The notes below the pieces were generated by a model. That model searched no databases, was not told the DNA's origin, and saw only the letters and a program-made list of their open reading frames with translations. From Bacteroidota bacterium (lineage in GTDB: Bacteria; Bacteroidota; Bacteroidia; AKYH767-A; OLB10), in assembly GCA_016722525.1 (NCBI GenBank), contig JADKJB010000016.1, positions 25,277 through 89,276 of the forward strand: a stretch of 64,000 nt of DNA, read 5' to 3'. Every line of letters begins with the position of its first letter. The stretch's first letter is position 1. Shown here one piece after another: positions 8,651-64,000 of the stretch. Both the position numbers and the translations under genes were made by a program.

Positions 8651-8678
8651 AAAGGCCTACCATAGAAGGCAGGCCTTT
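8651..8678 (-). terminator. Intrinsic terminator of the histone-like gene
   Basis: Stem AAAGGCCT (8651-8658) pairs with AGGCCTTT (8671-8678). On the minus strand it is followed by CTTGTTTTAT, 24 nt after the stop codon. Confidence 0.6.
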
Positions 8679-8701
8679 CAGCATAATAGGTGACAAAAGA
8701 A

Positions 8702-9130
8702 TTATTTCTTCTTAGTAGCTTTCTTTTTAGTAGCAGCTTTTTTCCTTGGAGCAGCTTTCTTAGTAGCAGCTTTTTTAGTAGCAGCTTTTTTCTTAGGAGC
8801 AGCTTTCTTAGTAGCAGCCTTCTTCTTAGGAGCAGCTTTCTTAGCAGCAGCTTTCTTCTTAGGAGCAGCCTTTTTAGCTGACATAACTTTTTTAGCAGCT
8901 TTTTTCTTAGTAGCTTTCTTCTTAGTAGCAGCTTTTTTTTTAGGAGCAGCTTTCTTAGTAGCAGCTTTCTTAGTAGCAGCTTTTTTAGTAGCAGCTTTCT
9001 TTTTTGGAGCAGCTTTCTTCTTAGTAGCAGCTTTCTTTTTAGCAGCAGCCTTTTTCTTAGGAGCAGCTTTCTTTGCAGAAACAGACTTCGCTTTTGAAGC
9101 AGATTTCTTTACTGATTTTTTTTTCATCAT
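8702..9130 (-). CDS. Lys/Ala-rich histone H1/Hc2-like basic protein
   Basis: 142-aa ORF made almost entirely of degenerate KKAA(P/T)KKKAATKK repeats. It has its own terminator. The antisense ORF is a low-complexity shadow. Confidence 0.7.
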   Translation of the reverse strand: MMKKKSVKKSASKAKSVSAKKAAPKKKAAAKKKAATKKKAAPKKKAATKKAATKKAATKKAAPKKKAATKKKATKKKAAKKVMSAKKAAPKKKAAAKKAAPKKKAATKKAAPKKKAATKKAATKKAAPRKKAATKKKATKKK

Positions 9131-42763: not shown

Positions 42764-43897
42764 TCATGCTTTTTGAAGACAAAATTCTTTCAGTTTAAGA
42801 ATGCAATAATCTATCTCTTCTTTAGTGTTGAATCTCGAAAAAGAAAATCGCACAGCTGGCCTTTCTGGGTCAGTTTTCATAGCACTCAGCACATGCGAAC
42901 CAACACTGCTACCACTGGAACAAGCGCTTCCACCGGAGGCCGCAATTCCGGCAATATCAAGATTAAACAACATCATTTCAGCCATATCAGAAGGAGGCAA
43001 AGAAACATTCAATACAGTAAAAAGATTGCCATCTGATACATCGCCATTAAACTCTACTCCTGGAATCTCTTCCTTTAAACGAGTGGCCATATATTTTTTC
43101 AATTCTGTTATCTGCGCTGTATCATGATCCAAATCGCGATAAGCAATTTCAAGTGCTTTTGCTAATCCTATGATTCCATACACATTTTCAGTTCCGCCTC
43201 TCATATTTCTCTCTTGGGCCCCTCCTGTAATAAAAGGATGAATTTTTATTCGCTTATTGATGTACAGGAACCCGACACCTTTAGGACCATGAAATTTATG
43301 TGCGGCACAAGTAATAAAATCAACCGGTAAGGTGGAAAGATCATAGTGCATGTGAGCCATTGTTTGTACGGTGTCGGAATGGAAGACTGCATTATACTTT
43401 CTGCAAAGCTCCCCTACCTTTTCTATGGGAGTTAATGTGCCTGTTTCATTATTGGCATGCATCAATGAAACGAATGAGCCCGGATGCTCCTGTAACAACT
43501 TTTCAAGATGAACTAAATCGATATGCCCTTGCTTATCGATATGGACCATACTTAATCCAATGGTACCTTTATTTTGAGTTCTTCAAGCGTATGGGTAACA
43601 GCATGGTGTTCGATTTCAGAACTACGGCATGAGTGATTTTGAGATCACTGATGCCAACAACGAATGGCTGTATTATTGGCTTCCGGTACCACCGGAAGTA
43701 AAAAAAATCTCAGCTGGAGAAACGTTTAGCAATTTAGCAACTGTTTTCCTGGCCGCTTCAATCAAAGATCTTGTTTCTCTACCGAATGAATGAATTGAAG
43801 AAGGGTTTCCATACTGATTTTCAAGCACAGGGATCATTGCCTGCAGGACTTCAGGATGGATTCTTGTGGTTGCTGCGTTGTCGAGATATATTTTCAT
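42764..43897 (-). CDS. Cysteine desulfurase (IscS/NifS-like; frameshifts ~43550-43670)
   Basis: MKIYLDNAATT, PLP-lysine motif HKFHGPKGVGFLY, active-site SGGSACSSG. Confidence 0.85.
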
Positions 43898-43901
43898 AGA
43901 A

Positions 43902-45308
43902 TTAGGCCTTAACCATTGACTGACTGATAATATCCTTTATATCACTAATTATTTTTTCAGCAAGATTTTGTGCTGTTGTTGCCGATTGACTTTCAGAGTA
44001 AATTCGAATAATTGGTTCAGTATTCGATTTCCTGAGGTGTACCCATTCGTTATCAAATTCAATTTTAACTCCATCAATGTCGTTCACCGGTTGCTTTTTA
44101 TATTTTTCCTTTATAGCCAGCAAAATTTTATCTACATCTATTTCAGGGGTCAGTTCAATTTTGTTTTTTGAGATATGGTAATCCGGGTATTTAGCTCTTA
44201 GCATGGATGCTGATTTTCCAAATTTAGCCAAATGAGTAAGAAAAAGAGCGATACCGGCTAGTGCATCTCTTCCATAGTGCAAATCAGGAACTATCACGCC
44301 ACCATTTCCTTCGCCACCGATCACTGCATTGCGGATTTTCATCATATCAACCACATTCACTTCGCCAACTGCAGATGCAAAATATTTTCCTCCTGCAGCT
44401 TCAGTAACATCGCGCAAAGCACGTGTTGAAGATAAATTTGAAACGGTATTGCCTTTTTTATTTTGTAAGATATAATCTGCAACAGCTACCAAAGTATATT
44501 CTTCTCCAAACATTTCTCCATCTTCACAAACCAAGGCAAGACGATCAACATCAGGATCCACAACAATTCCCAAAACAGCCTTTTTCTTAACTACCTGCTT
44601 TGAAATTTCAGTAAGGTGTTCCGGTAAAGGCTCAGGATTATGTGGAAACAGACCTGTAGGTTCGTCATAAATTTCTATAATATTGGTGAACTCCTAAGGC
44701 TCTTAATAATTGCGGAACAGCGATTCCTCCGTTGCTGTTCACGCCATCCACTGCGATCCTGAAATTGCATTTACCAATAGCATCAACGTCAACGCGTGGC
44801 ATGGCTAATATGGCATCAATATGTTTTTGCAGCGCATCAGTATCAGGTATAACAACACCTAGCTTACTTACTTCTTTGAACTCAACTTTTCCAGCATCAG
44901 CGATCCGAAGTATTTGCTCACCATCAGCAGCGCTTAAAAACTCACCTTTCTGATTCAGTAATTTAAGAGCATTCCATTGTTTTGGATTATGGCTGGCAGT
45001 GAGAAATTATGCCACCATGTGCCTTATGGAAAACAACTGCCATTTCAACTGTTGGTCGTAGAAAGGCCAACATCAATAATATCTATCCCCATTCCCATAA
45101 GAGTACCCGTCACCAGGTGGGCCATTGGACCTGAAATACGGGCATCGCGGCCAAGAACTACCTTTTTGGGTTCATTAGAGGGGGTATTGTTATTGATCCA
45201 GGCACCATAGGCAGCGGTAAATTTAACGATATCAAAAGGTGTAAGACCTTCACCAACAGGACCGCCTATGGTTCCTCGGATGCCTGAAATAGATTTAATT
45301 AGTGTCAA
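43902..45308 (-). CDS. glmM: Phosphoglucosamine mutase (at least 3 frameshifts)
   Basis: N-terminal (M)TLIKSISGIRGTIGG with a TTG start at 45308. The TASHNP phosphoserine loop is readable at ~44985-45002. The C-terminal domain is intact. Confidence 0.82.
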
Positions 45309-48718: not shown

Positions 48719-49498
48719 ATGAAAAAATACATCCTTCTAGCCTTGCTATCCTCAATTGGCTTTACAGTACAATCTCAATCCCGATGGAATGTGGGGATTC
48801 AAACGGGTTGTGTTACCAACTTATCCAGATTCGATTCAGGAAATGAAGAAGCAAATGCCTTATTTAGCAACAACCCTTACAAATCGGCTCTGCTAGGTGT
48901 CAATTTCAGATATAAAATCAGTGACAAATTTTCATTTCAATCCGGATTTCACTTTACAGAATTCGGCTTCAGCTATGGAATGGCTAAAAACTACTCCTTG
49001 TTAAAACCGGAAAGCCGTTATTCAGATCTTTCTTCAAGCACATGCATTTCAAGTATTCCAGCATTAGTTGTTTTAAATACTCCTGTTAATTGTAATAATG
49101 TACGTTTCATTTTTGGAGCAGGGTTTGCAATTCGGGGAATTGATGATAAATGGGAAAGCGACAGCGAAGCTGAAATACCTGCTAACGAGGGAGCAAATGC
49201 CAAAACAACGTACATGAAGGCCCAATCCAAAACTGTAAATGGAGTTTCACCTGCCGCTACCTGGATAATAGGGTTTGAAAAAGTACTTTCAAGAGGAAAC
49301 ACTATGAGTTTTACCTTTCAGGGAACCCAAGGCTTCACTACAATAGCAGAATCAACCGTAAGTTATACTGCAGGCAATCAGGAGTATTCACATACGTTTA
49401 TTAATAGAGGCAGCTATGCAACTATGGCATTTGCTTACAATTTCAGTTCATTTGGAACTCGAAAAGCAAACAAATTGCTTAAAAATGCAATCAAGTAA
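48719..49498 (+). CDS. Outer-membrane beta-barrel (porin-family-like) protein
   Basis: Signal peptide MKKYILLALLSSIGFTVQSQ, alternating beta-strand pattern, aromatic-rich C-terminal strand (MAFAYNF). Confidence 0.5.
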   Translation: MKKYILLALLSSIGFTVQSQSRWNVGIQTGCVTNLSRFDSGNEEANALFSNNPYKSALLGVNFRYKISDKFSFQSGFHFTEFGFSYGMAKNYSLLKPESRYSDLSSSTCISSIPALVVLNTPVNCNNVRFIFGAGFAIRGIDDKWESDSEAEIPANEGANAKTTYMKAQSKTVNGVSPAATWIIGFEKVLSRGNTMSFTFQGTQGFTTIAESTVSYTAGNQEYSHTFINRGSYATMAFAYNFSSFGTRKANKLLKNAIK

Positions 49499-49525
49499 GA
49501 ATTAGTTTTTACTAATTATTAAAAA

Positions 49526-49561
49526 AGAGGAAGAACCAAAATAAATTTTGATTCTTCCTCT
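49526..49561 (+). terminator. Intrinsic terminator; last feature of the conserved region
   Basis: AGAGGAAGAA...TTCTTCCTCT stem followed by a T-rich tract. Confidence 0.6.
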
Positions 49562-49684
49562 TTCTGTTTCGATTCAATTTTTTTTTACACTTTTTATTCA
49601 TTTTGAACAGGGAACTTCCACCAAAGAGCATAAGAATGAAAAAGAGGCATTAATTGTACAAAGCTATGCCCTGTTATTCAAAAG

Positions 49685-49731
49685 TGATTCCGAAGCGACT
49701 CGAACGCTTGACCTTCTGCTTTTCAGGCAAT
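49685..49731 (-). other. 3' half of tRNA-Phe(GAA) (positions 27-73): att-like remnant
   Basis: Reverse complement reads ATTGC-CTGAAAA-GCAGA-AGGTC-AAGCG-TTCGAGT-CGCTT-CGGAATC-A. That is an anticodon arm, a 5-nt variable loop, a canonical T-arm, a 3' acceptor strand and a discriminator. No D-arm or 5' acceptor strand lies upstream. Confidence 0.75.
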
Positions 49732-49739
49732 CCACCAAA

Positions 49740-49934
49740 ATGGGAGTCAAAGGCACTTCACAGGCTTATATTCTTGGAAACGGTAGGAAGCACTTTAGAG
49801 TGCAATTTTGGGCTATGTTCTGCAGAATATTTAATATTGAAGCTGGGGTGTTGAATGGGGTGGATTTGAGGGAAACATTATTATTCCAAGAAAAAATACT
49901 AAAAACAGACGAATTGTCCGCATTTTTCATCTGA
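49740..49934 (+). CDS. Conserved small ORF (64 aa) in cassette leader A
   Basis: MGVKGTSQAYILGNGRKHFRVQFWAMFCRIFNIEAGVLNGVDLRETLLFQEKILKTDELSAFFI. Comparison with copy B shows coding-like substitutions (synonymous AGA/CGG and TTG/CTA). The stop is followed 14 nt later by a hairpin terminator. Confidence 0.45.
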   Translation: MGVKGTSQAYILGNGRKHFRVQFWAMFCRIFNIEAGVLNGVDLRETLLFQEKILKTDELSAFFI

Positions 49935-49948
49935 ATGCCATTTTGTCT

Positions 49949-49990
49949 CAGGGTTTACCCCTAGGGGGAAACCTGTGTTTTGTGATTTTT
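49949..49990 (+). terminator. Intrinsic terminator inside the leader (copies also at 54476-54517 and 60364-60405)
   Basis: CAGGGTTT(A)CCCC / GGGGAAACCTG stem followed by TGTTTTGTGATTTTTTG. It is conserved in all three leaders. Confidence 0.65.
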
Positions 49991-50081
49991 TGTAATAGTT
50001 ATGAATTTCATGTTTACAATTACATGTAGCTATTTTTCAATCAGCTAATTTCAGTTAAAATTAACCTTTAATCCGTGTAAT

Positions 50082-52009
50082 ATGAAAACAACTTATTCCA
50101 AATTAATCATGTTGGTTGCCTTTTTGATATTTTTTCAAATGGAAGGCTTCTCCCAAACATTAACTTTAACACCCTCCAACTTTAATGGTTATAATATCAG
50201 TTGCTTTGGTAGCGCAACAGGAAGTGTTAATCTGACTATTTCAGGAGGCACACCACCATACACTATTGAATGGAGTAATGCGGCCACCAGCGAGGATCTC
50301 AGTAATGTCCCTGCGGGCTATTATCGTGTCAGCGTTGATGATGCTGACACCTTAACAGAGGCCGTGGATGCAGAAATAACTTTAACAGAACCTGAGCCAC
50401 TCCAAATCGGGGAAGCCTATCCTTATGTTTATCAGAACGGTTACAATGTTAGCTCTTATGGAGCATGTAATGGAAGTATTATTCTTGATGTTAAAGGGGT
50501 GTTGCCCCATATACTTATTTATGGGAACCGGGTCAGCAAACTATTGCGAACCCGTCTAATTTATGCTCTAATGAAAATCAAGTAATTGTTACAGATGCAA
50601 ACGGCTGTGCTATTGCAAACGGAATAGGATTGAATGAACCTCAAAGAGATGACTGGACCATGAATGGAAATTACAATTCTGATCCTGCGACACAGTTTAT
50701 TGGTACAATAGATAATAAAGACGTCTCATTTCGGACAAATAATTTAGAGAGATTCAGAATAAAATCAGATGGCAAAATTTCAATGAGTACGTTCAGTGGT
50801 GCAGGATCTAAAATAGTGTATGCAGATAGTTTGGGAGTATTAAGATCATTTTCTTTTCTTTTATCTACTTGTTTGCCTCGGTCTCCAATTATCGCTTGGC
50901 AGGCGAATCCTGCAATTCAAAATAAAGTATTTGCATGTGGAATTGATTTTGGAATTGGAACATATAGCCCCAGAGAAAAACTGGAAGTAAAAGGAACCGT
51001 ATTAGTTACTTCATGGGATAATTCCCTAAATAATATGTCAGATTACCTCCAACTTAAACACGATGGTGTAAATGCACGAATAGAAAGCTTTGGTACAGGC
51101 GATTTATTGTTGAATAATGGAAATCCAAGAAATGTGAAAGTTAATTTGGGCAATGGGTCAGGATATTTTGAAACAGGAAATAATACATATTTGGCCACAG
51201 AAAGTGGAAATGTTGGAATTGGTATAAGTACACCTAATTACAAATTGGATGTAAATGGTAATATAAATTATACGGGAGAATTATATAAAAACGGAACATT
51301 AATATCAGATGCTTTTTGGTCTACTACCACTACCGGTATTAATTTTGGTTTAGGAAATGTGGGTGTAGGGACATCTAATCCTATAGAAAAATTTCAAGTC
51401 AATGAAGGAGCAATTTCTGCTGTAATTGGATCTGCAGAAGGTCAAGGCCTAGATTATGGAACATGCTATTTTGGAATGAACGCCATTCGAACAGGTATGA
51501 ATAGTTGGATAAGCTCAACTGATGGCATACATAACGGAGGTACAATACTTTTTGGAAGTATTAGCGGTGATTTTAATATTGCAACTATCCCGAGTTGTGA
51601 ACCCAATTGCAATACGGATTTAATTTACGATAACAACTTTATTCAAGACAATACTAGCTTTAAAATCAGAGCTTCAGACGGTCATATTTCTATGGGAGGA
51701 AACCCTCATAATGATTATAAACTAAATGTATGTGGAGGTATAATAACTAATAAAGTTAGAGTACCTGCAATCTGGTGTGATTATGTCTTTGAAAAAGGTT
51801 ATGAATTAATGTCAATTGATAATTTGAGGCAATTTGTAGAAACTAACAAACGTTTACCAGAAATACCATCACAGAAGGAGATTGAGAGCAATGGTGTGGA
51901 TGTCGGTTCTATGCTGACATTACATATGAAGAAAATCGAAGAATTAACTTTATATGTTCTTGAGTTAGAGAAAAGAATTAATGAGTTAAAAAATATATCA
52001 AATGAATAG
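50082..52009 (+). CDS. Secreted SprB-repeat / tail-fibre-like protein A1 (one frameshift in the G-run at 50496-50499)
   Basis: Signal peptide, two SprB-type repeats (NISCFGSATGSVNLTISGGTPPYTIEW and NVSSYGACNGSIILDVKGG.APYTYLW), fibre-like GNVGIG..NP..KL.V.G motifs, and a C-terminal WCDYVFEKGYELMSIDNLRQFVETNKRLPEIPS module with a coiled coil. Confidence 0.65.
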
Positions 52010-54135: not shown

Positions 54136-54245
54136 TTAATTAGGAATAGACCCCAAATACTGGATTCTGTAAGATCCTTAACATGAATCTACTACATAAA
54201 ATATCTCAGTTTTTTTGAGATATAGACGTGATCAGTATGAGAGAA

Positions 54246-54608
54246 CTTTTCAGGCAGACCACCAGAATGGGGATCAAAGGCAAATCACAGGCATTTTTGC
54301 AAGAGAATGGTAGGAAACATTGTATTTTGCTATATCTAACTATGTTTAGCCGGATATTTAACATTGAACCTGGGATGCTAATAGGGGTTGATTTGCGGGA
54401 GATTTTTTAATCCCAAGAAAAAATACTAAAAACAAACAAATTGTCCGCATTTTTCATCTGAATACCATTTTGTCTCAGGGTTTCCCCTTAGAGGGAAACC
54501 TGTGTTTTGTGATTTTTTGTAATAGTTATGCATTTCATGTTTACAATTACATGTAGCTATTTTTCAATCAGCTAATTTCAGTTAAAATTAACCTTTAATC
54601 CGTGTAAT
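54246..54608 (+). repeat. Cassette leader, copy B
   Basis: Collinear with 49719-50081 without indels. It lacks the T-arm/acceptor part of the tRNA remnant; homology starts at CTTTTCAGGCA, the anticodon-loop sequence. Confidence 0.85.
54267..54461 (+). pseudogene. Small leader ORF, copy B, with an in-frame TAA at 54408-54410
   Basis: MGIKGKSQAFLQENGRKHCILLYLTMFSRIFNIEPGMLIGVDLREIF(stop)SQEKILKTNKLSAFFI. Same length and frame as copies A and C. Confidence 0.4.
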
Positions 54609-56325
54609 ATGAAAACAACTTATTCCAAATTAATCATGTTGGTTGCCTTTTTGATATTTTTTCAAATGGAAGGCTTCTCCCAAACATTAACTTTAACACC
54701 CTCCAACTTTAATGGTTATAATATCAGTTGCTTTGGTAGCGCAACAGGAAGTGTAAATCTGACTATTTCAGGAGGCACACCACCATACACTTTCGAGTGG
54801 AGTAATGCGGCCACCACTGAAGATCTTACCAATGTCCCTGCGGGCTATTATCGTGTCAGCGTTGATGATGCTGATACTTTGACATCCATTGTCGAAGCCG
54901 AAATCACGCTAACACAACCGGAACCACTTGAGATCGGAGAGGTTCAGCCGTACGTATATCCAAACAATTATAATGTTAGCCAGTTTGGTGCTTGCCATGG
55001 TACTATCCAAATCAATGTTTCAGGTGGAGTTGTTCCCTATGACTATGCTTGGAGTCCAGGACAACAAACGGTTTCTAATCCAACTAATTTGTGTTCCCCG
55101 CCAAAACACAGTGTTGCTAACCGATGCCATCGGATGTAAGACCTCTGCAAGTGTGCTTTTAAGTGAGCCGGAGCGCGACGACTGGATTATGAATGGTAAT
55201 TTCAGTTCTAATCCCGCCACACAATTTATTGGCACCAGAGACAGCGTGAAACTACTTTTCAAAACCAACAATCAGGAGCGCATGAGTATTGCTGCAGATG
55301 GGCAGTTTAGGATTAACAAACTGGGTGGCACGGGATCTCGTTCGTTGATGGTTGATTCACTAGGGAAGTTGATTGCAGCTCCTGCTCTTAGTTGGATGAC
55401 AAATGGTAATTTTCTCGGTGGTAATGAGTTTATCGGATCCACCAATAGTAAAGATCTGGTTTTTAAAACTTCCGGCATGACAAGAATGAAAATAAAATCA
55501 AATGGCAAAATATCAATATCAGAATTTGAAACTACTGCTAATGGAATTCTTTACACCGACTACTTAGGAGAAATTTGGAAACTTGATTTTGACCCATCAC
55601 AACCAGCATTATTCTTAGATGCTTCAGGAAATTTCACAGCATTACCAACAGGTAGCAATGCCTGGAGTTTGAGTGGACAAACCGTTTACAACCTGCATTC
55701 AGGAAATACAGGAATTGGAATAGCGAACCCTGCTTACAAATTTCATGTTGTGCATGATCCGGGAACTTCTTCAAGTGGAGGAATTATAGTGGAAAGCAAT
55801 AATGCGAACAATGCCAATAGTGAAATTAAGTTTAAGCATGCGGGAAATGATCAATGGTCAATAGGGAGTAATGTTCAACACAACTCTACAAGAAACTTTT
55901 TCATTTATGATAATTCCATTTCACCGGTGGGCGAGACTCGTTTTTATATTGATGGTGATGGACGGATTGGCATTGGTGTGATCCCACCCACAACTTGGCC
56001 TTCACAGAGTGCAGAGTATCGATTGTATGTTGAAGGAGGCATAATGACCCGTGATGTTAAAGTTACTGCCCAAAATCCCTTTCCAGATTATGTGTTCGAA
56101 GGTGACTATGATTTAATGACCATTACAGAGTACGGTAATTACTTAAAAAAACACAAGCATTTACCCGGCATTCCAACAGCTGCCGAAATTGAGGAGCAAA
56201 AAGGATTTGAAGTAGGTGATATGCAAGTAAAACTCCTCGAAAAAGTAGAGGAACAAGCACTATACATTGTGGACTTGCAGTGGCAATTAAATGAAATAAA
56301 GGCTCAACTTAACATCAAAAAATAG
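54609..56325 (+). CDS. SprB-repeat / tail-fibre-like protein B1 (one frameshift; C4 run at 55096-55099 versus C3 in copy C)
   Basis: Same architecture as A1. The C-terminal module is FPDYVFEGDYDLMTITEYGNYLKKHKHLPGIPTAAEIEEQKGFEVGDMQVKLLEKVEEQALYIVDLQWQLNEIKAQL. Confidence 0.65.
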
Positions 56326-56330
56326 TAGCT

Positions 56331-58538
56331 ATGAAAACATACATACTTTTAAGTGTTTTGTGTATCTTTATACTAAATACGCAAGGCCAAACACCACCTC
56401 AAGGTTTTGTGACTCTGAAGGGCAGACAGTTTTATGATGGAAATGGATTGCCGTTTTATCCGTTGTTGATGAATTATTCTCTAGAATATCAACATGATAA
56501 TGCACAAAATGGTACACATTGGCTTAATAAATCATGGGAATATGGAACAGATGATGATGGTTTGAGACTAATAATTTTTGGCAGCTCAAATTGAAATCAT
56601 GAATGATTTGCATCAAATAAAATTGATGGGATTTAATATGGTCCGGCCTGATTTTACTGCGGAGTGGGATACTGATGTAAATCAGTTTTATTTAAAAGGT
56701 CGAACATACGGAATCCAAACAACCCGGCAGATCCGAATAACCATTCCAGTCAAGAAAGGAGAATTTGGTTTGATCAACCATCATTGGCAACAGACCCTAA
56801 TTTCATTGAGTATTTATATTATTTAGATTGGTTTATATCAATGGCTGGCAATGAGAACATGTACACTATGCTTAATGGTGCATTAGGGGACGTTTCAGAT
56901 CCACTGGCATATAATAGATATTTGGAATTTCTGGATTTGTTAGGAAAAAGATTCAAGGATAACAAGTGGTTGGCATTTTACGATATTTTAAACGAACCAT
57001 TATATAAATATAAATATGCGCATGCTGATGGAGATATAAATTTTTATACTAAAAAGCAAGCATGTGAATTGGTTGAAGATTTTTATAATGCCCTTAAAAA
57101 TCCAAATGCAGACCCCAACCACCTCGTTTCTGGCGGAAATTTAGTTACAGAAGATGTCATTTTGTTTGACCCTTCTTTAATGAAACTGGATTTTAGTCAA
57201 CCACACCTATATTCTGAAAAATTTATTTCATACGATGGCATGAACCTGACTAACAAGATTAACAGAGTGAATGGAAGCACATATTGGGTCTACAAAAACA
57301 TACCAATGCCATGGATAAACGGCGAAACCGGTTTTCCTTCATCGGATGTATTTCCAATAGGAGTTAATCTCGTTGCAGGAACAAATCAGGACCAAAAAAC
57401 TTATGCTGATAATATTCTTTCCTCCACACGTGATCATGGAGGAAGTGGATTTACATGGTGGAATTTCCAGGATGGAGCATGGGAAGAATATGGAACCGAA
57501 ATATTTGGATATGGTTTATTAATCTTAGAATCAGGAATTGATAAACCTGCAGTGAATTCATTTCAAAGCTATCTTGATCCATCAACAAACCAACCTCCCC
57601 AATGAGTACAATCGTTCCCAGTGAACCACCTAATTTCCAGGGATCCTTATGTGAACAAATTGTACAATCCAAATGAAACAGGAGCTGTTACAGGCACAGT
57701 TTTAGATGAAAACGGAAACGGAATTGAGAATGCCTGGATTGTGGCAAAGAATTATTTAAAAATAAACCAAACTACTAGTTATGCTGATTGTAGTTGGATT
57801 TACACCTATACAAAAATAATGGCAATTTTAAATTGATACCATTTAATAATGAACCAACAAATGATCACAGAATCACTTATTTAATAGGTTCTGCAATGGG
57901 AGTTGAAAGCTTTCACTCGGGTATAAATGATGGGACTCAGATGGCAAACCCTCCTCCTTTCACACTTAAGCAAAATAAATTTGAATACGATGCGATTGTT
58001 GAATCTGATGTACCCATTTCAGAAGAGATAAATTTTAAAGGCTGGAATTCTCTTACCATGAATAATTCAAAACTGGAAGGAATTTCAACATTAAATGCAA
58101 GAGAAGTCATTAATTTACATGATGGTTTTCATGCAACGCAAACAAGCGAAGTGCATATCTTTCCTGCCGAAACATTTGCAGTTTGTAACGATTACACTGA
58201 TTATACGATTCATTTTGCAACGTGAATCTCAAACCAATCATTCAAATTCAAATATTGTAGACACAAAAAATATTGAGATAAAATTTTCAAAGGCCAAAAT
58301 TTCAATTTTTATTCAACCGAATCCTACCACTGGTTGTGTTACTGTAAAATTAACAAATGATGAAAATCTTGACAACAAAAAATTGATAGTAAGAAACATG
58401 ATTGGTGAAAATTTGAAAGAAATTATTTTCATTGGAAATGAAACCGTATTTAATTTAACAAATTTACCCAAAGGAATTTATTTAATTGAAATGAATTCGG
58501 ACCAAAAACAACTTATTAGCAAACTAATTTTAAACTAA
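56331..58538 (+). CDS. GH5-like (clan GH-A) glycoside hydrolase with a CarboxypepD_reg-like domain and a T9SS sorting domain, B2 (about 5 frameshifts)
   Basis: Six collinear ORF fragments. Motifs GFNMVRP, YDILNEP (acid/base NEP), WINGETGFP (nucleophile). CTD IFIQPNPTTGCVTVKL...GIYLIEMNSDQKQLISKLILN. Confidence 0.6.
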
Positions 58539-59971: not shown

Positions 59972-60099
59972 TGTCATATTGTTTAAAAAGCATAATAATC
60001 AGGATGAATTTACAATCAAAAACACTACTTGTTTAAACCATTGATTATACCAAGCTAAAAAAATAATTGAAAATGGTTGTCACTATTTGAAAATAAAAG

Positions 60100-60146
60100 T
60101 GATTCCGAAGCGACTCGAACGCTTGACCTTCTGCTTTTCAGGCAAT
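60100..60146 (-). other. Second copy of the tRNA-Phe(GAA) 3' half remnant
   Basis: Identical 47-nt sequence to 49685-49731, in the same orientation. Confidence 0.75.
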
Positions 60147-60154
60147 CCACCAAA

Positions 60155-60349
60155 ATGGGAGTCAAAGGCACTTCACAGGCTTATATCCTTGGAAACGGTA
60201 GGAAGCATTTTAGAGTGCAAATTTGGGCGATGTTCTGCAGAATATTTAATATTGAAGCTGGGGTGTTGAATGGGGTGGATTTGAGGGAAATATTATTATT
60301 CCAAGAAAAAATACTAAAAACAGACGAATTGTCCGCATTTTTCATCTGA
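60155..60349 (+). CDS. Conserved small ORF (64 aa), copy C
   Basis: Differs from copy A at a handful of positions and keeps the same stop and terminator. Confidence 0.45.
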   Translation: MGVKGTSQAYILGNGRKHFRVQIWAMFCRIFNIEAGVLNGVDLREILLFQEKILKTDELSAFFI

Positions 60350-60496
60350 ATGCCATTTTGTCTCAGGGTTTACCCTTAGAGGGAAACCTGTGTTTTGTGA
60401 TCTTTTGTAATAGTTATGCATTTCATGTTTACAATTACATGTAGCTATTTTTCAATCAGCTAATTTCAGTTAAAATTAACCTTTAATCCGTGTAAT

Positions 60497-62209
60497 ATGA
60501 AAACAACTTATTCCAAATTAATTATGTTGGGTGCCATTTTGATATTGTTTCAAATGGAAGGATTCACACAAACATTAACTTTAACACCCTCCAACTTTAA
60601 TGGTTATAATATCAGTTGCTTTGGTAGCGCAACGGGAAGTGTAAATCTGACTATTTCAGGAGGCACACCACCATACACTATTGAATGGAGTAATGCGGCC
60701 ACCAGCGAAGATCTCAGTAATGTACCTGCGGGCTATTATCGTGTCAGCGTTGATGATGCTGATACTTTGACATCCATTGTCGAAGCCGAAATCACGCTAA
60801 CACAACCTGAACCACTTGAGATCGGAGAGGTTCAGCCGTACGTATATCCAAACAATTATAATGTTAGCCAGTTTGGTGCTTGCAATGGAACTATCCAAAT
60901 CAATGTTTCAGGTGGAGTTGTTCCCTATGACTATGCTTGGAGTCCAGGACAACAAACGGTTTCTAATCCAACTAATTTGTGTTCCCGCCAAAACACAGTG
61001 TTGCTAACCGATGCCAACGGATGTATGACCTCTGCAAGTGTGCTTTTAAGTGAGCCGGAGCGCGACGACTGGATTATGAATGGTAATTTCAGTTCTAATC
61101 CCGCCACACAATTTATTGGCACCAGAGACAGCGTGAAACTGCTTTTTAAAACCAACAATCAGGAGCGCATGAGTATTGCTGCAGATGGGCAGTTTAGGAT
61201 TAACAAACTGGGTGGCAGGATCTCGTGCGTTGATGGTTGATTCACTTGGGAAGTTGATTGCAGCGCCTTCTCTTAGCTGGATGACAAATGGTAATTTTCT
61301 CGGTGGTAATGAGTTTATCGGATCAACCAATAGTAAAGATCTGGTTTTTAAAACTTCCGGCCTGACAAGAATGAAATTAAAATCAAATGGTAAAATTTCA
61401 ATATCAGAATTTGAAACTACTGCTAATGGAATTCTTTACACCGACTACTTAGGAGAAATTTGGAAACTTGATTTTGACCCATCACAACCAGCATTATTCT
61501 TAGATGCTTCAGGAAATTTCACAGCATTACCAACAGGTAGCAATGCCTGGAGTTTGAGTGGACAAACTGTTTACAACCTGCATTCAGGAAATACAGGAAT
61601 TGGAATAGCGAACCCTGCTTACAAATTTCATGTTGTGCATGATCCAGGAACTTCTTCAAGTGGAGGAGTTATAGTGGAAAGCAATAATGCGAACAATGCC
61701 AATAGTGAAATTAAGTTTAAGCATGCGGGAAATGATCAATGGTCAATAGGGAGTAATGTTCAACACAATACACAATGAAACTTTTTCATTTATGATAATT
61801 CCATTTCACCGGTGGGCGAGAACCGTTTTTATATTGATGGTGAAGGACGGATTGGGATTGGTGCGATCCCACCCACAACTTGGCTTCACAGAGTGCAGAG
61901 TACCGATTGTATGTTGAAGGTGGCATAATGACCCGTGATGTTAAAGTTACCGCTCAAAATCCCTTTCCAGATTATGTGTTCGAAGGTGACTATGATTTAA
62001 TGACCATTACAGAGTACGGCAATTACTTTGAAAAACACAAACACTTGCCCGGCATTCCAACAGCAGCAGAAATTGAAGAGCAACAAGGATTTGAAGTAGG
62101 TGATATGCAGATAAAGCTACTTGAAAAAGTTGAGGAACAAGCAAGGTATATTGTAGATTTACAACGGCAATTAAATGAAATAAAGGCTCAACTTAACATC
62201 AAAAAATAG
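60497..62209 (+). CDS. SprB-repeat / tail-fibre-like protein C1 (2-nt deletion ~61217, in-frame TGA at 61776-61778, 1-nt deletion ~61893); possibly a true pseudogene
   Basis: Collinear and highly similar to B1 over its whole length. The lesions were identified by direct comparison with B1. Confidence 0.6.
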
Positions 62210-62214
62210 TAGCT

Positions 62215-64000
62215 ATGAAAACATACATACTTTTAAGTGTTTTGTGTATCTTTATACTAAATACGCAAGGACAAACACCACCTCAAGGCTATGTGACTCT
62301 GAAGGGCAGACAGTTTTATGATGGAAATGGAAATCCGTTTTATCCGTTGATGATGAATTATGAAATGGAATATCAGTATGACAATAGTTTTACCAATCAC
62401 TGGTTGAATAAATACTGGGAATATGGTATAGAAAATGATGGATTTGAAAATACTAATTCTATTGATGCTGAGAATGAAATAATTTCAGATCTTACTATTA
62501 TAAGAAATATAGGATTCAATATGGTAAGACCTGAATTTACACCGAAATGGGATCCAGTTTTGAAAGAATTTTATTTACGAGGTCGTACATATGGTGATCC
62601 GTCAGTTCAATATAACCTAGATAGTGACGATGCCAGAACCTATTTTGATCAACCTTATGCAACGAATCAAGCTGTTTTAGAATATTTTACATATATGGAC
62701 TGGTTCATTGATCAGGCAGGACAAAATAATATGTACACCATGTTGAATGGTGTTTTAGGTGATGTTACCGATCCTGATGCATTTATTCCTTATAAAGAAT
62801 ATCTTGACTTATTAGGCAAACATTTTAAATTTAATACTTGGCTCGCGTTTTATGATATTATAAATGAACCACAATATGTATATAATTATGCCTATTCAAC
62901 ACCTCAATATAGTAAAATGCAAGCATGTGAATTGGTTGCTGAATATTACGATGCCTTAAAAGATGACAATGCAGATCCAAATCATCTCGTCTCGGGAGGG
63001 AATTTGGTCACTGAAGATGTTACTTTGTTTGACCCTTCATTATTAAAATTAGATTTTAGTCAGCCACATTTATATTCTGAAAGTTATACTACTTATGATA
63101 ATTGCAACTTAACAAATAAAATTAATAGAATAAAAGGAAGTACCTACTGGTTTTCAAAAAATATTCCAATGCCATGGATAAATGGCGAAACAGGATTTCC
63201 TTCTTCTGATGACCCGCAATATCCCAAATGTAATGATTTAGTTTGTTTAGTTGCCGGATCAAATGCCGATCAACAATCCTATGCGGAACAAATTTTACAA
63301 AATACACGAGATAGCAAAGGCAGCGGTTTTGTATGGTGGGTTTTTCAGGATGGAGCCTGGCCCGATCATGGAAATGCGCTTAATGGGTATGGATTGTTGA
63401 CCCTTGAAACTGGAGCGCCCAAACAAGCTGTAACCACTTTTGCAAATTATTTGGACCCAAATAATAATTATCAGCCTCCTCCTGCAAGTGCTACCTTGCC
63501 AGCAGAACCAGATAACTATAGGGACCCATATGTTAACAAACAATTCAACCCAAATGAAATTGGAGCCGTTACTGGAAGAGTCTTGGATGAGACCGGAAAC
63601 GGAGTTGATAATGCTTGGGTAACAGCAAAAAATTATTTGTACGTTGATTATAGTCTTCCACAACCTGAAATTGTTTGTTCATGGATAAATACGTATACAG
63701 ATCCAGATGGGTATTTTAAAATTATTCCATTGAACACTACAGATTTCATGGATCCATAGAATCACCTTATATAAGAGGTTCAGCAATGGGGCAGAAAGTT
63801 TTCATGCAGGAATTAATGATGGTACACAAATGGTAAACCCGTCTGATGTCACGCTTAAAAATATTAAATTTGAATATGATGCTTTTGAGGAAGTAGCTGT
63901 TGCAATTTTAGACCAGAGAAATTTTAAAGGTTGGAATTCTTTAACAATAGCAACTCAAAATTGGAAGGAGAATCACAATTAAATGCCAGAGAGAAATTAA
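62215..64000 (+). CDS. GH5-like glycoside hydrolase paralogue C2 (intact for 514 codons, frameshift ~63755, continues past the window end)
   Basis: Motifs GFNMVRPEF, YDIINEP, WINGETGFP and GAVTGRVLDETGNGVDNAW. The first ~125 nt are near-identical to B2, then the sequences diverge. Confidence 0.65.

Follow-up and report, generated by a model that had tools for sequence, protein, structure and literature searches.

A small open reading frame repeated in SprB cassette leaders is probably the decaying 3' relic of a mobile-island gene

Several described systems resemble the locus studied here, a 195-nt open reading frame (ORF) that occurs three times, as copies A, B and C, in the 64,000-nucleotide stretch of DNA analysed (the window). 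Genomic islands that insert into the 3' half of tRNA genes, leave direct repeats as att remnants, accrete in tandem and later suffer decay of their backbones find their counterpart in a matching tRNA 3' half and an array of units at a single site; unlike such islands, the window lacks an integrase, a second repeat with an intact tRNA and any other backbone genes, and copy B has no remnant. Bona fide small-protein genes (<70 aa) are alike in length, in their ATG, in a frame that is open in several copies and in a pairwise dN/dS below 1, whereas the ORF differs from them in the variable position of its stop, in a constraint that has recently been relaxed and in a conservation that comes through descent from a larger gene. 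A family of island proteins, exemplified by the protein P0007, shares with the window copies the reading frame, the end point and the FSRIFNIE core motif. The window copies differ from it in being truncated and altered at invariant positions, in the stop carried by B and in the lack of flanking backbone genes. XRE/Cro-CI regulators such as lambda cI, C.BclI, SinR, SaPI Stl and Neisseria NHTF (Pfam HTH_3 clan) come closest to the predicted fold of the C-terminal ~75 residues of this parent protein, whose gene likewise belongs to the backbone of a mobile element; the parent differs from these regulators by an extra ~60-residue N-terminal region of low confidence and has no sequence-profile match to them.

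We conclude, with a probability of roughly 0.8, that the 195-nt ORF is a 5'-truncated, decaying relic of a protein-coding gene and not an independent gene. A relic beside an att scar, duplicated together with a cassette leader, is ordinary and will not surprise a specialist. The case carries a caution, namely that a strong pairwise codon signature (dN/dS ~0.15, including double synonymous substitutions within codons) can be inherited by a gene fragment and is on its own no proof of a live small gene. As a by-product, the analysis brought up a rare unannotated family, probably XRE-like, that belongs to tRNA-integrating islands with defence cargo in T9SS-bearing (Bacteroidota-type) bacteria. The data also suggest that the repeated SprB/T9SS cassettes of the window occupy a tRNA-Phe site where such islands have left a scar, and an island scar under the cassettes could mean that mobile islands deliver surface-protein cassettes.

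Copies of the reading frame and their homology

A preliminary description of this DNA had reported three collinear copies, and these are indeed present in direct orientation at 49740-49934 (A), 54267-54461 (B) and 60155-60349 (C), with B and C offset from A by +4527 and +10415 nt and no indels between them. Copies A and C differ at 5/195 nt, and A and B at 46/195 nt, again without an indel. Copy B had been called one-third diverged, which is about right for codons 1-47 (42/141 nt, 30%, no indel) but too high for the ORF as a whole (~24%); the divergent stretch between A and B stops at the end of the ancestral gene, at about codon 47. The ATG is kept in A, B and C, as had been stated. Copies A and C stop at codon 65, while in B the previously reported change of TTA to TAA at 54408 is present and places a TAA at 54408-54410, which is codon 48.

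In the plus-strand frame, A and B are separated by 12 synonymous and 19 non-synonymous codon differences, and the former include the doubly substituted pairs AGA/CGG at codon 29 and TTG/CTA at codon 38; the dozen or so synonymous differences counted earlier, these two pairs among them, are therefore real and exceed chance at P≈0.002. The null distribution was obtained by placing the same A/B substitutions at random, which yielded 4.8±2.0 synonymous codons, with P(≥12) = 0.002 and P = 0.0003 for at least 12 synonymous codons in a frame with no stop. Nei-Gojobori estimates for A vs B in the plus frame were pS 0.66, pN 0.20 and dN/dS 0.15, as compared to a dN/dS of 1.1-2.4 in other frames and of 0.44-0.47 in the antisense frame with common third positions. 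In a comparison that included family members, A and B were mutual closest relatives at a nucleotide identity of 73%, with pS 0.59 and omega 0.18. The coding signal of the plus frame is statistically real, and the view that protein-coding selection shaped this frame stands on both the dN/dS of 0.15 and the synonymous excess.

The 64-aa product had been described as having no recognisable family. Scans of this product, of the antisense ORF and of a 128-aa extended ORF against Pfam and NCBIfam gave no match, and a word-indexed protein search with the product returned nothing beyond the protein of the window itself and a single 47-aa call from a metagenome. In an exhaustive phmmer search of 1.84 billion representative proteins, residues 1-44 of the ORF matched residues 101-144 of the 151-aa protein P0003 at 61% identity (E 8.8e-8). 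P0004, third among the phmmer matches, is 1161 aa long and repetitive and was dismissed as spurious. P0003 belongs to a family of proteins 143-163 aa long, and codons 1-47 are homologous to the C-terminal third of these proteins, so that the product is not without relatives. Using full-length members as tblastn queries, only the three copies matched within the window, over 52-69 residues of the family C-terminus and at 40-65% identity: A at 49719-49880 (E 5e-16 to 1e-12), B at 54210-54416 (family residues 76-144, E 1e-20 to 1e-14) and C at 60134-60295. The family profile scored 66 bits on copy A, covering profile positions 81-147 of 153. The window copies carry the core motif in the same frame as the family, and the ATG at 49740 aligns with a Lys in most family members and with a Met in P0003.

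Homology reaches upstream of the ATG by 7 codons in A and C and by ~19 codons in B, that is, it begins ~12 residues earlier in B than in A and C. The gene relic accordingly spans 49719-49880 on the plus strand in copy A, where it corresponds to the last ~55 residues of the family (~88-143), and 54210-54410 on the plus strand in copy B (family residues ~76-144, with the ATG at 54267); in copy C, relic and read-through tail together occupy 60134-60349 of the plus strand, with the ATG at 60155 and the stop at 60347-60349. All window copies are without the first 75-87 residues of the family, and both the N-terminal KPHxNRRKVFPNAH motif and the invariant LQSLFKNNILFLCD block are missing, homology starting at residue ~88 in A and C and at ~76 in B. 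A possible upstream extension of the homology in copy A (49602-49718) was rejected, as it scored 0.2 bits against the family profile and lay within the range of shuffled sequences; part of this stretch is deleted in L001, a JGI metagenome contig.

L001, from which the 47-aa call derives, is the orthologue of the copy-A locus; its frame is shifted by a +1 insertion near codon 45 and, farther downstream, by a -1 deletion. Family members all end 3-18 residues past a DLR/DFK motif, which is the position of the TAA of B and of the frameshift of L001. Because the family ends there, the last 17 codons of A and C (codons 48-64; 49881-49934 on the plus strand in copy A) are, judged from the sequence, read-through into the spacer. 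This tail lies past the family C-terminus, has no homology to any member and is 37% diverged with indels between A and L001, as compared to 7% for the relic part. The ORF can thus not be upheld as a full 64-aa gene. The TAA of B, since it sits at the natural stop of the family, is not a disabling mutation.

Parent protein, its islands and the tRNA remnant

The family is rare and unannotated, with about eight full-length members, all of them metagenomic. The members considered are P0003 and P0005-P0011, found by searches with P0003 and with the family profile, plus L011 from a metagenome scan; the searches recovered eight proteins, of which one is a 98-aa fragment and the other seven are full-length (143-163 aa), and one further locus. 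There is no Pfam, NCBIfam or PHROG model of the family, and a search of PHROGs gave no meaningful match. Family scans of GTDB genomes and of viral contigs found none, and the metagenome scan yielded two loci only. Functional members are under strong purifying selection: L011 vs L013 showed nd 7.5 and sd 30.5 over 52 codons, omega was 0.15 for L002 vs L010, and functional family pairs generally had omega ≤0.15.

In L002-L006, L008 and L010 the family gene occupies a constant place in an island backbone, which runs from a tyrosine integrase through a 257-aa protein, HTH_17, AAA_25, DUF6965 and a 204-aa protein to the family gene, followed by 2-3 small genes and then by cargo. The cargo varies, with CTD10/MC6/MC7/DUF2326, a type III restriction-modification system and SocA_Panacea among its components. 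No papers on DUF6965 came up in a literature search. The boundaries of the L002 island are an intact tRNA-Arg and a 46-nt direct repeat of the tRNA 3' half; this repeat covers the anticodon loop plus 3 nt of the 5' stem and is separated from the start of the integrase by 35 nt. As a unit, the element at 569-12330 of L002 (also seen in L005) is an ~11.7-kb island with the tRNA-Arg(ACG) repeat, the integrase backbone and the CTD10/MC6/MC7/DUF2326 cargo, and related backbones carry type III restriction-modification in L010 and SocA_Panacea in L007; these are a small family of defence-carrying islands. One source (JGI) names P0007 (6420-6854 of L002) a hydroxymethylpyrimidine/phosphomethylpyrimidine kinase, which looks like an annotation error, as the name is unsupported by Pfam, NCBIfam and the predicted fold.

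A second setting was seen at L011 (786-2397), at L013 (2234-6017) and on the P0003 contig, where the full-length family gene is solitary and convergent with T9SS-sorting-domain or SprB-repeat genes. No integrase backbone is visible around the gene on these short contigs, which give a partial context. Since these solitary full-length members lie next to T9SS-sorted genes, there may also be a looser association of the family gene with secreted-protein loci.

An AlphaFold model was computed for the parent protein P0007 (not for the relic) from a six-sequence alignment. The model is all-helical, with a mean pLDDT of 60 and values of 68-78 across residues 60-140. When the model was compared with the PDB in Foldseek, nearly all of the 50 best matches were XRE/Cro-CI helix-turn-helix (HTH) domains, among them NHTF, EspR, lambda cI, C.BclI, SinR, BldD and Stl; target TM-scores were 0.6-0.73, but the E-values of 0.4-3 are not significant and the model is of medium confidence. 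No Pfam HTH match was obtained at E≤10 for the 64-aa ORF or for P0003, and a profile search of PDB sequences with the family gave no HTH match. A PDB sequence match to SaPI CpmB (E 0.37) was treated as noise. On the basis of the model, the parent protein is probably an XRE/Cro-CI-like HTH regulator of the island. Predicted helices 1-2 lie before the start of the relic, which retains just the last three (~3-5) and is therefore unlikely to fold or bind DNA alone. A regulatory or excision role had been put forward for the ORF. Its regulatory half gains plausibility as ancestry through the XRE-like HTH model, while the excisionase half is unsupported: in intact islands the HTH_17 excisionase-like protein is a separate gene, and the 64-aa product has no match to excisionase families in Pfam or NCBIfam.

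An att-like remnant had been noticed next to the ORF, and it is confirmed as the 3' half of a tRNA-Phe-like gene with the anticodon GAA. It lies on the minus strand directly left of the relic, at 49685-49735 in copy A and 60100-60150 in copy C (60099-60165 is identical to 49684-49750), and is also adjacent to the relic and identical in L001; there is no tRNA remnant left of B. Of the 5' anticodon stem the remnant keeps 3 nt; these are followed by the loop CTGAAAA, the 3' stem, a variable loop with the sequence AGGTC, the T arm, and the acceptor 3' strand with the discriminator. The Rfam tRNA model matched 49685-49742 of the minus strand with 19.2 bits, which is below the gathering score of 29 because the 5' half of the tRNA is missing; the cmscan alignment covers model positions ~27-71 with high posterior probability and the anticodon GAA, and the D arm is absent. 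ARAGORN did not call the remnant as a tRNA. Its T arm and variable loop match those of a real tRNA-Arg in a metagenome-assembled genome (MAG), the T arm being identical, and its extent and its polarity relative to the gene are the same as those of the L002 att repeat. On these sequence features, the tRNA 3' half is to be read as an att-type remnant.

In A and C remnant and relic meet in the 11-nt CTTTTCAGGCA, a stretch that reads as the L-F-R-Q codons of the gene and at the same time, in reverse complement, as anticodon loop and stem of the tRNA. The same site reads CTTTTCAGGCAG in B, without tRNA sequence, and CTGTTCAGACA in L011 and L013. A search of the window with ARAGORN and with tblastn of the backbone proteins found no intact tRNA-Phe, no integrase and no other backbone gene.

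Constraint on the fragment and alternative explanations

The state of the fragment was assessed at 18 positions that are unchanged in seven full-length members with a mean pairwise identity of 64%. Copies A and C keep 13/18 of these invariant residues, L001 14/18 and B 15/18, and B additionally has an in-frame TGA (54216-54218) at a family-invariant Cys codon. Mean identity to full-length members is 52% for A and 62% for B, and A is further than B from every member. Since the split from L001, nd 8 and sd 4 were counted for A and nd 9 and sd 3 for C, corresponding to omega ~0.5-0.8 (Fisher P 0.28 and 0.72 vs neutrality, on 12 substitutions only). Over this split the relic pN is 0.065-0.073, as compared to pN 0.009 and pS 0.234 (dN/dS 0.04) for the adjacent intact gene at 48719-49498. 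The relics now evolve under relaxed constraint. With A and B as nearest relatives at omega 0.18, most of their divergence therefore arose under a purifying regime; the codon-level conservation is inherited from the parent gene and is not the sign of a new small gene.

The best of the alternatives, which we consider unlikely, is that the fragment is still a functional small protein, with translation starting at the conserved ATG and a product of ~47 aa, or of 64 aa in A and C. Such a helix-3-to-5 remnant could interfere with the full-length regulators of related islands or regulate the downstream cassette. It would account for the ATG and the frame that is open, without indels, over 47 homologous codons in A, B, C and L001, i.e. 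in both lineages, and for a dN/dS of 0.15-0.18 between A and B although both copies are truncated; a terminator-like hairpin lies downstream, and the changes between A and C are 3 synonymous and 1 non-synonymous. If A and B had already been truncated when they split, a dN/dS of 0.15-0.18 would indeed indicate selection on the fragment itself. Further points against the relic are the absence of an integrase, of any other backbone gene and of an intact tRNA-Phe from the window, the sub-threshold Rfam score of the tRNA remnant, and the coincidence of two independent truncations within 12 codons, which is explained by argument alone: for a deletion to take out the backbone and spare the promoter of the cargo, it has to end within or close to the last backbone gene. 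What weighs against a functional fragment is the loss of the most conserved block of the family and of predicted helices 1-2, the 3-5 of 18 invariant residues lost in each relic, and the recent omega of 0.5-0.8 with a pN 7-8 times that of the neighbouring gene. Furthermore, the C-termini are of three kinds: A and C run to a stop at codon 65, B has its stop at codon 48, and in L001 a frameshift gives a product of 47 aa. The upstream sequences of A/C and B are unrelated and there is therefore no shared promoter, copy A is preceded by the strong terminator hairpin of the upstream gene, and outside the window there is one gene-caller record only. A more specific proposal would have the ~47-residue fragment kept and expressed as a truncated HTH protein that titrates the regulators of incoming islands (a domesticated immunity or anti-repressor function), with the junction produced by integrase recombination at a secondary att core, CTTTTCAGGCA, within the coding sequence; we regard this as a long shot.

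It is very improbable that the ORF is instead a structured non-coding RNA or a cis-regulatory leader that would control the SprB-type cassette gene, for instance an attenuator with the hairpin at its end. Each of the three paralogous cassettes does have the element upstream of it, the hairpin and T tract at the end of the element are conserved, and RNAalifold gives seven pairs with double-sided change, but covariation contributes only -1.8 kcal/mol, calculated from four sequences that amount to three lineages, and the folding energy is close to that of shuffled sequences (z = +0.22 on the plus and -0.73 on the minus strand). Apart from the partial tRNA, no Rfam family was found at the gathering and E-value thresholds, and the sole robust structure in the region is the hairpin at 49949-49975 with its T-rich tail. 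The substitutions are codon-periodic in one frame, and the element has its homologues in a protein-coding gene family, the functional members of which show strong purifying selection. A structured RNA is thus a worse explanation than coding. The antisense ORF at 49766-49930 (minus strand, 54 aa), which has its third codon positions in common with the plus frame, is refuted as a gene by the early stop that interrupts it in copy B and by the homology that ties the plus frame to full-length proteins, and it has no homologues and, as had been noted, scores worse (dN/dS 0.44 vs 0.15).

Cassette leaders and a proposed history

The stop of copy A is followed ~14 nt later by an imperfect, terminator-like hairpin of ~10 bp with one bulge and a 3-nt loop (49949-49975), which together with its T-rich tail spans 49949-49996 on the plus strand of the cassette leader; conserved copies with a T tract lie on the plus strand at 54476-54523 (B) and 60364-60411 (C). 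The pattern occurs in three copies in the window, with none expected by chance, and is also conserved in L001; one compensatory change affects the loop-closing pair. A scan for consensus terminators did not call the leader hairpin, probably due to the bulge in its stem. The hairpin is absent downstream of every full-length homologue, and the pattern was not found in viral contigs. The conserved hairpin and T tract had been described as the ORF's own terminator; their presence and spacing hold, but they are part of a homogenised leader. Past the ancestral stop, the copies are ~98-100% identical through the spacer, the hairpin, a promoter-like region and the start of the SprB gene.

Another strong hairpin, likewise followed by a T tract, is located at 49524-49563, just 3' of the 259-aa gene at 48719-49498, where spurious sub-threshold Rfam matches (e.g. 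Plastid-psbA-1) were obtained. It is probably the terminator of the 259-aa gene and would block read-through into the relic of copy A.

For the origin of the relics we propose the following history. Related islands, at least two or one together with a diverged duplicate, would once have occupied the tRNA-Phe site, with SprB/T9SS cassettes downstream of them as cargo or neighbours. The A-type and B-type genes would have diverged while full-length and under purifying selection, which would explain both the synonymous excess and the lack of indels. The island backbones would later have been deleted. In the lineage of A, C and L001, a deletion of ~6 kb may have fused the att remnant with mid-gene sequence at CTTTTCAGGCA, either by integrase-mediated recombination at a secondary site or by a microhomology deletion, and in B a separate deletion would have left ~12 more residues. 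The cassette leader 3' of the ancestral stop would have been homogenised by gene conversion or duplication, and the divergence would end abruptly at codon ~47 because of this homogenisation.

Cassettes B and C (54246-58059 vs 60134-63948) are paralogous throughout, and their identity falls from 97-98% near the leader to 74-76% at ~3.5 kb downstream, a gradient that suggests gene conversion spreading from the leader. Cassette A has only its first ~1 kb in common with B and C. The SprB-repeat genes (50082-52009, 54609-56325 and 60497-61778) are each split into at least two overlapping or adjacent ORFs, for example 50082-50585 and 50630-52009, and the break points differ between the paralogous cassettes; the split ORFs are either real pseudogenes or frameshift errors of the assembly. 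At 42764-44573, two ORFs of 261 aa and 223 aa resemble, from their translations by eye, N-terminally short fragments of a cysteine desulfurase-like and a phosphoglucosamine mutase-like protein, and their shortness hints at assembly frameshifts. Finally, a dense tandem array with an alternating spacing of 15 and 18 nt is located at 8657-9097; its 18 in-register copies are 61-82% identical and probably represent a short peptide repeat within a gene.
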